Part shown: piece after piece, positions 42,001 to 45,000 of the stretch
Position numbering within the stretch: the stretch's first letter is position 1
Layout of the letters: each line of letters opens with the position of its first letter
Assembly: GCA_040289515.1 (NCBI GenBank)
Contig: PSLI01000001.1
Coordinates: 51,685 to 115,684 of the forward strand
Direction: 5' to 3'
Source: Candidatus Sysuimicrobiota bacterium
GTDB taxonomy: Bacteria; Sysuimicrobiota; Sysuimicrobiia; Sysuimicrobiales; Sysuimicrobiaceae
Length of the DNA: 64,000 nt
Position numbers: made by a program

Positions 42001-45000
42001 CCAAGGTGGAGTGCAACCGCCTGGCGCGGGTGGCGCACCACGGGCTGGCGCAGGCGGTCTCGCCCTCCCACACCACCCTGGACGGCGACACCTTTTTCGC
42101 CCTGAGCCTCGGGCAGGTAGAGGGCGTCTACGACGTGGTGGCCGCGGCGGTGCCCTCCGTGGTGGCGGAGGCCATCCGACGTGCGGTGCGGGCGGCACGC
42201 GGGCTGCACGGCATCCCAGGGCTGGCGGATGGCCCTGAAGGGTTGCACCCAGCCTGAAGCGCGGTTAGGCTGTTGGCGGGCCGGCATCCACTGCGAGTCG
42301 GACCCCGGCGAACCGAAATCCCCTTCGGTCCGTCCGGTACTGGGAGGCCAGACTGGAACGGAGGTGCCGCGTGGAGCCTGTCCGATCCTCCGCGCCCGCA
42401 CGGAGGGGTCTGCGTCTGCGGGCGCAGGACCTGACGGTGGTAGGAGCTCTGGGTGCTGTAAGCGCGGTGCTGGGCACAGTACCCGGGCTTGGCTTCGTCC
42501 CCGCCCCCACGCCCGCGGGGGCTGCCACCACCCTGCATATTCCCGCTATCCTGGCTGGCCTGACACGGGGTCCCGTGGCGGGAGCCCTGGTGGGGTTGGT
42601 TTTCGGGTTCTTCAGCTTCACCCGCGCCACGCTCCCCTTCTTCAAAGACCCGCTTATCGCGTTTGTCCCGAGGGTGCTCATCGGCGTGCTCACCGCGTAC
42701 GCCTTCGCCCTCCTGGGCCGCACGGCCTCTCGCGCGGTGGCGGCTTTGGCCTGTGGGGCGGCGGTGTTCGTGGCCCTGGGGCCCGGGGCCGCAGCCTTCG
42801 AGGCCGCTTTCGCGGCGGGCCGGGTGCCCTCCAGCTGGCTGGTGGACCTGTATCACGCGGTGGCCGCGCAGACATCCCGCACCCCATGGGTGGGTTTTGC
42901 CGCGGGCCTTGCGGGTGCCCTGCTGGCGTATGCGGCCCTGCGGCCAGAGGACGCGCCGGTGGGGGCCGCGGCGGTGGTGGGCACCCTCACCAACACCGTG
43001 GGAGTGCTCATCCTGATCGTGCTGCGGTTCCCCGAGATGATGCCGCCCGGTGCTGCATTCCTGGTGGGCGCCACCCACGGCCTGCCGGAGGCGGTGCTGG
43101 CCGTGGTGGTGACCGTGCCTACCTACCGGGCCCTGCGGGCCGCAAGGCTGGTGTGAGGAGGCGCCGTGTTGCTGGCGGTGAACGTGAACAACACGCAGAT
43201 CAAGCTGGCGGTGTACCCGGATCCCGAGCGGGACCCGCAGCCCCGGGTAGACTGGCGGGTGTCTACAGACTGGCAGAAGACGGAGGACGAGTACGGCGTC
43301 CTGTTCGCCCACCTGTTCCAGCACGCGGGGCTGAGCCTCCGGGACGTCACGGACGTGGCGGTATCGTGCGTGGTGCCACCCCTGTTGGACACCGTGGAGC
43401 GGCTGTGCGAGCGGTACTTCGGCACGCGCCCGTTGGTGGTGGGGCCGGGGATCCGTACCGGGATGCGGATCCTGTACGAGAACCCCCGGGAGGTGGGCGC
43501 AGACCGCATCTGCAACGCGGTGGCCGCCTTCGCCCGGTACGGCGGCCCCAGCGTGGTGTGCGACTTCGGGACCGCCACCACCTTCACCGCGGTGTCCCGG
43601 GAGGGCGACTTCCTGGGGGGAGCCATCGCCCCGGGCATCGGCATCTCCCTGGACGCCCTGGCGGAGCACACCGCACAACTCCCCCGCATCGACCTGGAGA
43701 AGCCCCGCAGCGCCATCGGCCGGTCCACGGTGGCGGCCATGCAGGCAGGAGTGTACTACGGGTTCATCGGGCAGGTGGAGGAGATCGTGCGCCGGATTCA
43801 GCGGGAGCTGGGCGAGCCCGCCACGGTGATCGCCACGGGCGGCTGGGCGCGCCTGCTGGCCGAGGAGCTGACCTGCATCCACCACCACGACCCCCTGCTG
43901 ACCCTGGAGGGACTACGCATCCTGTTCCTGCGGAACCGCAGGGTGGAGGCGCGGTAGGGCCCGCGTGGTACATTGGCCTCGTGAAGCGGGTGGTGAGCGT
44001 GAGCCTGGGCTCCTCCCAGCGTGACAGCCGCCTGGAGCTGGAGCTGCTGGGCGAGCGGGTGGTGGTGGAGCGGGTCGGCACGGACGGTGACCTGCGGCGG
44101 TGCGCGCGGCTGCTGGAGTCCCTGGACGGGACCGTGGACGCCATCGGCCTGGGCGGCATGGACCTGTTCCTGCAGGCGGGGCACCGGCGCTACTACCTGC
44201 GGGACGCGGTGCGGCTGGCGCGCCGGGTCCGGCGCACGCCGGTAGTGGACGGCAGCGGTCTCAAGCAGGCGTGGGAGCCCTTCGTGGTGCTGCACTACCT
44301 GCCGGAGGTGGTGGGCTACGGGTTGAGGGGCCGGCGCGTGCTACAGGTAAGCTCCGTGGACCGGTACGGCATGGCGGAGGCTTTCGCCCGTGCGGGCGCC
44401 CAGGTGGTGTACGGGGACTTTCTGTTCGCCTTGGGCCTGCCGATCCCCCTGCGGTCCTTACGGGCAGTACGGGTGCTCGCCGCCCTGCTCCTGCCCTTAC
44501 TCAGCCAGGTCCCCATCGGCTGGTTGTACCCCACGGGTAAGCGGCAGGAGCGCACCACGCCCCGATTTATCGGCTACTTCCGCTGGGCGGAGGTGGTGGC
44601 AGGGGACTTCCATTTTATCCGCCGGTACATGCCCCACGACCTGCAGGATAAGGTGGTGCTGAGCCAGACCCTCACCCGGGCAGACGTGGAGGAGCTGCGG
44701 CGCCGCGGCGTAGCTTTGCTGGTCACCGTGACCCCCGAGCTCAGCGGGCGGTCCTTGGGGACCAACGTGTTCCAGGCGCTGGTGGTGGCCTTCGCGGGCA
44801 AGCCGCCGGAGACCATCGCCCCGGAGGAGTACGTACACTGGATGCACCGCCTGGGCTTCGGGCCACGGGGGGAGTGGTTGAATCCTCCGGGCTCCGCGGA
44901 GCTGCGGGAGCTGTACGACCGCTGGCACGAGGGGAGGACCGCACAGCGGTGGAGCGCTTCGCCTTCGTGATCCACCCGCTGCAGGTGGAGGACTTCGCCC

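Follow-up and report, generated by a model that had tools for sequence, protein, structure and literature searches.

The operon of a probable pantothenate transporter (panT) and a type III pantothenate kinase (coaX) in a Candidatus Sysuimicrobiota genome is preceded by a conserved leader, which raises the question of what RNA this leader encodes and what acts on it. A preliminary description had presented it as a new motif and most likely a riboswitch. We examined the leader in the window, i.e. the whole stretch of 64,000 nucleotides of contig PSLI01000001.1, and searched for its counterparts in this phylum and beyond. The features of the locus are listed below; the hairpins are named after the pan motif, to which they are compared in a later section.

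41286-42257, peptidase S58 gene, upstream flank of the pan leader
42243..42271, + strand, sigma-70-type promoter-like site read from the sequence (-35 hexamer 42243-42248, 17-nt spacer, -10 hexamer 42266-42271)
42279..42304, + strand, pan hairpin 1, bulged A at 42286 and 42302 (RNAalifold, covariation, alignment to the first RF01749 hairpin)
42312..42329, + strand, linker hairpin, variable in sequence and length (no consensus helix predicted by RNAalifold)
42329..42362, + strand, pan hairpin 2, bulged A at 42339 and 42357/42358 (RNAalifold, covariation, RF01749 alignment)
42360..42364, + strand, Shine-Dalgarno sequence GGAGG, 6 nt 5' of the GTG start at 42371
42371..43156, + strand, ECF S-component, probably PanT (PF12822, E 7.8e-18)
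43166..43957, + strand, type III pantothenate kinase CoaX (PF03309; NF009855 above cut-off)
43981..44970, + strand, conserved hypothetical protein with the automatic name 'quinate 5-dehydrogenase' (Atlas clusters at 0.97)
44874..46034, + strand, start uncertain, shikimate-dehydrogenase/acyl-ACP-reductase-like oxidoreductase (PF01488; TIGR04058 under its cut-off)

The leader of the panT-coaX operon

The existence of a conserved structured leader between a promoter-like site and the Shine-Dalgarno (SD) sequence of an S-component (PF12822) and PanK (PF03309) gene pair, as first proposed, is confirmed. The best PDB matches of the S-component are 6ZG3_C and 4RFS_S, which we take to be PanT structures, and judging from its sequence the protein is probably PanT. 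The two genes that follow coaX, the first of which encodes a product with no Pfam or NCBIfam match, are probably co-transcribed with panT-coaX. The promoter-like site scores under the threshold of the consensus promoter scan. As its hexamers end at 42271 and a TAnnnT hexamer is kept 4-13 nt 5' of hairpin 1 in 33/35 leader copies, the transcript probably starts near 42278. With regard to the extent initially given, 42274..42367, the element itself stands, but its first position, 42274, precedes the probable start of transcription; the element spans about 42278-42364, with hairpin 1 at the presumed 5' end of the mRNA.

RNAalifold yields the two hairpins unaided from a MAFFT alignment of 35 copies that was not fitted to a model (37 copies were extracted, of which one duplicate and one truncated copy were omitted). 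Hairpins 1 and 2 are two copies of one unit, which comprises at least two pairs, a 5-bp core and a variable top, with one bulged A on each strand. The separation into a 5' hairpin and a central stem plus inner hairpin as distinct parts is therefore given up. The covariation described earlier holds on this alignment: 98.4% of the cells pair and 10/23 pairs vary on both sides, values that are inflated by kinship, whereas 0/500 shuffles match the real alignment and slid controls pair at 24-57%. All 35 copies keep three of the four bulged A's without change, and the fourth is displaced by one column in 3 rows. The loops and the linker vary freely, conservation being observed only in the bulged A's and the helix cores. 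Taken singly, the window copy is not more stably folded than its shuffles (z -1.29), and hairpin 1 is missing from its minimum-energy structure; the case for the structure rests on comparison among copies, not on single-sequence folding.

The leader was detected by blastn in 27/101 relatives. A covariance model built on copies of this phylum only (R1) locates it at 53 places in 51/94 genomes of the phylum, including one unpublished genome (G023), and among the matches listed the named records belong to the CSP1-3 lineage. In agreement with the position first described, before panT or, if this gene is missing, directly before panK, 40 of these places precede the S-component gene and 11 directly precede coaX; the 2 others are a place before a family-5 ABC binding protein gene and a weak match. 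The reported absence of PanC from the phylum is also borne out (0/94 genomes, with the positive control found in 9/14).

Several observations were made on neighbouring and related genes. The operon lies in a conserved cluster (36400-49350) comprising genes for an FTCD-like protein, folP, folB, folK, a BirA-like ligase, peptidase S58, panT, coaX, greA and clpC. In Bacilli (L621, L622), the pan RNA likewise has a BirA-like gene 5' of it, peptidase S58 is also found 5' of the hairpin and coaX in L077 and L086, and the 'quinate 5-dehydrogenase' hypothetical is also 3' of coaX in L077. A second full tandem pan copy (L029:1500-1596; L729, G011:C6) leads a family-5 peptide-type ABC transporter, which may import pantetheine or another compound that contains pantothenate. 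Family f4 has 13 unlinked S-component paralogs (L374-L386), upstream of which no pan hairpin was found; a different element is common to their upstream regions, in which about 15-20 nt separate a GCAGG box from a GGAAT box, an arrangement that we presume to resemble a sigma-H-type promoter. Genes that have lost the motif (L387-L389, L653, L656, L658, L660, L662, L664) often seem to have little or no leader, a -10-like box being located directly 5' of the start codon. Four near-complete genomes (G015, G026, G044 and G065, genera g7, g15 and g26) show no CoaX, panT or PanC match; CoaA was found in 0/4 and PPS in 0/3 of those tested.

Relationship to the pan motif

When the 101 nt from 42272 to 42372 were submitted to cmscan, pan (RF01749) was the top match, over model positions 1-92 (24.7 bits, E 0.0097), and Zeta-pan was second. 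The leader had been said to show no Rfam match beyond chance, a blank that arose because 3-kb and whole-genome scans miss pan here: owing to filters and search size, no pan is returned at the locus when Rfam is run on 3 kb, on genomes (0/94) or, at the gathering cut-off, on 20 whole loci. Among 20 other copies of about 100 nt scanned jointly, 3 match pan, compared with 0/20 control leaders from the same genome. In the reciprocal test, the best match of R1 overlaps the Rfam-called pan RNA in 16/16 low-GC loci, taken from 33 and mostly high scorers, with E<=0.1 in 12/16. On 29 regions from coaX-less genomes, the best R1 match has an E of 0.14 and lies on the wrong strand. The gathering cut-off of RF01749, 36.2 bits, is reached neither by the window copy (24.7 bits) nor by its best relative (28.2 bits), so the leader is filed as a variant and not as a catalogued pan member.

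In its passages on this motif, PMC2864571 (Weinberg 2010) describes pan as a stem in which two bulged A's are conserved, mostly arranged in tandem with singlets allowed, located 5' of panB, panC and panD, and proposes binding by a dimeric protein. The window RNA shares with RF01749 the pairing topology over the full model, the two bulged A's, the tandem or single layout and the pantothenate genes downstream. In the part of the supplementary seed alignment of PMC2864571 that covers them, the pairing string and the purine-rich 3' flank are also shared. The differences, beyond scores of 24.7-28.2 bits against the cut-off of 36.2, are the GC-rich cores and a short structured linker, which forms a hairpin where the pan consensus linker is unstructured and AU-rich. 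Moreover, 51/53 R1 places precede panT or coaX, genes of the pantothenate pathway but not those listed in 2010, so that the window RNA, unlike the pan of 2010, leads salvage genes in a phylum without PanC. It occludes the SD and no terminator was found downstream of it, unlike many Bacilli copies. Zeta-pan (RF03111) is a single hairpin of the same type, which the main text of PMC5737381 does not mention; it partially matches hairpin 2 (13.7 bits), far under its cut-off of 56.7. T-box and cobalamin readings, suggested by short look-alike words, were dropped as they have no Rfam support.

The architecture, the 3' flank, the gene context and the reciprocal model searches place the leader in pan. 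It is a real element and a variant of this known motif, not a new motif or riboswitch class, and we regard it with high confidence as a divergent, GC-rich tandem pan RNA. In the literature searched, no ligand or protein was seen to be assigned to pan.

The leader type is not confined to Sysuimicrobiota: Actinobacteria share with this phylum an 18-base core of hairpin 2 without a single difference. Over GTDB, the corresponding pattern gives at least 120 matches, and among the 120 listed, 98 precede a Rossmann-type gene, 5 an ECF S-component gene and 1 coaX; the 16 others had an unclassified downstream gene, which in one case (L086) is coaX. The 3 Rossmann genes tested carry PF10727 and PF10728, a combination that we take to be PanG/Rv3603c, and both next genes tested encode PanC. 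The name PanG is used for the mycobacterial ketopantoate reductase in PMC11626117. The panG-panC leaders of Actinobacteria thus examined exhibit a single hairpin just 3' of a -10-like box, near-identical to hairpin 2, and the actinobacterial panB leaders exhibit a second single-hairpin type with a different core (5/5). One narrow Rfam scan of each type gave no match. These Rfam-unmatched pan-type single hairpins leading panG-panC and panB in Actinobacteria are new here. An earlier hint of pan in this phylum is the pan-like sequence of M. avium in the relevant excerpt of PMC4607514, which concerns one species group and leaves the downstream gene unnamed, whereas the present singlets form two widespread types.

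Single-hairpin versions consist of hairpin 1 only in L392 and of hairpin 2 only in Actinobacteria; the core sequence differs among lineages and the two bulged A's are kept. In two Mycobacterium genomes (not M. tuberculosis), a hairpin precedes both panG and panB, and panB, panC, panD and panG lie in the two operons that carry these hairpins. The exact panG-type pattern is present in 11/251 genomes drawn across the actinobacterial phylum (control 0) and is therefore not universal there. A loose panB-type pattern over GTDB was discarded as mostly chance, with 14 of the 120 matches listed located before panB.

Co-occurrence of pan RNA and CoaX

The distribution of the motif was compared with that of coaX in three groups. 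In Bacilli (141 genomes, 129 with PanB, RF01749 counted at E<=0.05), panB-bearing genomes show RF01749 in 98/112 cases with PF03309 and in 0/17 cases without, these 17 representing about two lineages. Inspection reveals pan-like hairpins in around 9 of the 14 coaX-positive leaders that Rfam does not match. Nine of the 17 coaX-less genomes have a short hairpin-free leader before panG-panB, with CoaA present in the 3 tested. A sequence-blind double-bulge scan, for which the 200-nt search span was too short (5/26 against 7.2 expected from shuffles), was not used for the Bacilli count.

In Actinomycetes (151 genomes, two of them, G515 and G523, unpublished; 146 with PanB, 12 of which lack PF03309), we inspected the panB leaders of all 12 coaX-less genomes and of 58/134 others (30 best-scoring and 28 picked lower), and one leader was dropped from each group because it had no anchor. 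A single hairpin rule, set after the positives were seen, matches 52/57 leaders with coaX and 2/11 without, where shuffles give 5.0 and 0.9. Both coaX-less matches lie within the upstream coding sequence; among the 52, about 3 deviate from the consensus, and the rule overlooked two clear copies. The coaX-less group is a handful of genomes, three of which have panB inside an operon, and the count covers the panB leader, not the operon leader. Fisher P values were set aside because the genomes are kin. In L654, a locus of a coaX-less genome, the helix is kept and one bulged A is lost. In Sysuimicrobiota, where motif and coaX are linked in cis, 50/51 motif genomes have coaX and the exception ends at a contig edge.

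The converse cases are of two kinds. Enterococcus raffinosus and E. avium have a pan RNA and no PF03309 match. Their pan cassette is 99.3-99.6% identical to the locus of a coaX-positive genome, which suggests recent transfer, and transposase-like ORFs adjoin the cassette in L721 and L711. CoaX without the motif is common: in control genomes, PF03309 is found in 7/14 and RF01749 over its cut-off in 1/14, and genus g14 has kept coaX and lost the leader. Overall, the sequence comparisons show a strong trend, with few lineages underlying it, in which the motif tracks coaX even at the unlinked panB. As side observations, records of Enterococcus and Finegoldia (L716, L721, L711) share a pan RNA-panG-panB(-panC) cassette with >99% identity, and in L721 an insertion splits the pan leader from panG.

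This trend could also arise if pan RNA were bound by another protein, with CoaX co-occurring through a need for genetic control or an upstream role. We consider this somewhat unlikely. The structural case for a protein operator is the same (free loops, singlets and the dimer proposal in the pan passages of PMC2864571), type II and III pantothenate kinases are described as lacking CoA feedback in the section of PMC12570885 devoted to them, which could produce the correlation without CoaX binding, and the enterococcal pan RNAs occur without CoaX. In contrast, the motif persists in actinobacteria where CoaX is a reported pseudokinase beside active CoaA (PMC11626117). Two AT-rich coaX-less Bacilli are also without CoaA and have no pan RNA, so a missing feedback kinase alone does not bring the motif.

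Mode of action and candidate regulators

The initial view that the leader controls pantothenate salvage in cis, through the ribosome site, is supported. The first three bases of the SD are taken up in base pairs of hairpin 2, the core of which is predicted to form with P>0.5 in 34/35 copies. The median cost of opening the SD over the 35 copies is 6.4 kcal/mol at 37 C and 4.2 kcal/mol at 60 C, so that a modest stabilisation would probably shut translation. By eye, a terminator-like hairpin and a T-run can be seen 3' of many Bacilli copies. The alternative signal considered before, related to acyl-CoA or ACP, has lost weight, since in other lineages operons dedicated purely to pantothenate have the same hairpin as their leader.

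The overlap between hairpin 2 and the SD would serve as the expression platform of a riboswitch, and a protein operator predicts the same overlap. If the leader were a true riboswitch, its hairpins, or a pair of such RNAs, would dock via their bulged-A helices, and binding of pantothenate, CoA or a precursor would lock the SD. Small tandem hairpins turned out in another case to be the guanidine-II riboswitches, and the tandem layout with SD or terminator platforms, together with the 18-base hairpin 2 core identical in this phylum and Actinobacteria, fits this possibility; moreover, PMC9971707 and PMC10043782 state that no CoA riboswitch has been validated. However, no conserved loop or junction is seen in the alignment, singlets of either hairpin exist, the cores diverge widely among lineages, no conserved alternative fold was seen in the 12 folds inspected, and derepression in a mutant deprived solely of a pseudokinase (see below) is harder to explain. 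A riboswitch, previously thought most likely, is therefore not favoured and appears improbable to us. It is very unlikely that the structure is unregulated, i.e. a 5' stabilising hairpin and a fixed damper on translation. Hairpin 1 at the presumed 5' end and a hairpin 2 that is predicted to be formed almost always would suit such a structure, but it would need neither two conserved bulged A's nor a tie to pantothenate genes across phyla, and it gives no reason for the loss of the motif along with coaX.

The free loops, the singlets of either hairpin and the interchangeable cores favour a protein operator over an aptamer. We tentatively propose, on comparative grounds, that the pan leader of the window may be a translational operator bound by CoaX. 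The tandem pan RNA would act as a translational OFF switch for panT-coaX: a protein, most likely the CoaX dimer acting as a pantothenate sensor, would bind the roughly two-fold-symmetric helix and keep hairpin 2 closed, which would block ribosome loading when pantothenate is plentiful. CoaX would in this way repress its own operon here, and in Bacilli the same pan unit would be coupled to a terminator rather than to the SD. This proposal draws on the link between motif and coaX, which holds at the unlinked panB, and on the derepression of pan genes by coaX deletion in M. tuberculosis. It is weakened by the two enterococci that have the RNA without CoaX, by the frequency of CoaX without the motif and by the small number of lineages. 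No RNA-binding signature was found in CoaX. An RNA-binding proteome (PMC12234827) is uninformative on CoaX, as it concerns a streptococcus and contains no coaX row.

In M. tuberculosis, the CoaX protein, a pseudokinase that forms dimers, binds pantothenate, and deletion of coaX raises PanB, PanC, PanD and PanG protein and the transcripts of the pathway; the mechanism of the transcript rise is left unexplained and the authors offer an indirect explanation (PMC11626117). It is conceivable that the orphan pan RNA is in general the operator of CoaX as a pantothenate-sensing repressor in Bacillota, Actinobacteria and this phylum, the panG and panB singlets of Actinobacteria being its sites, which would explain the derepression in coaX-less mycobacteria.

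PyrR-type regulation, in which an enzyme homologue binds leader RNA, offers a comparison. Metabolite sensing and recognition of a small leader hairpin by the fold of a pathway enzyme would be common to PyrR and the role proposed for CoaX, whereas the fold, the RNA and the pathway differ and CoaX-RNA binding is hypothesised. The element by itself adds a phylum and salvage genes to the known range of the pan motif, which was catalogued in 2010; its value is that of a testable lead, with CoaX as a candidate factor binding pan RNA. If true, operator binding by CoaX would give one answer for the trigger of pan (sought since 2010), for the missing CoA or pantothenate riboswitch and for the transcript rise in the coaX mutant (2024). 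It would also define an actinobacterial pantothenate regulon missed by Rfam in the loci scanned, and a kinase of the ASKHA fold, to which we presume CoaX belongs, would join the RNA-binding regulators. If the RNA is a riboswitch instead, the thermostable-looking GC-rich copies would be good constructs for finding the missing CoA-class ligand.

The N-terminal loop of the window CoaX exhibits Asn at the positions of the usual Asp6 and Gly8 in an alignment to 2H3G, 9B78 and 3BEX, and Gly8 is one of the two positions changed in the mycobacterial pseudokinase. From the sequence, the Asn-type CoaX is possibly an altered kinase or a pseudokinase. No other pantothenate kinase was found (CoaA 0/5, PPS 0/5, Fumble 0/5, the Fumble control being silent), and motifs for CoaB, CoaC, CoaD and CoaE are present in the genome, so the window CoaX may well be active. 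A suspected absence of CoaB was rejected when a motif scan located a separate CoaB-like ORF. Most CoaX proteins of the phylum (43166-43200 in the window; L030-L058) have N-x-N-N-T where the family has D-x-G-N-T. The CoaC flavoprotein gene (G000:C5, about 49760-50300) and the CoaB-like gene (G000:C57, near 28322) lie on separate contigs and are not a fused coaBC.
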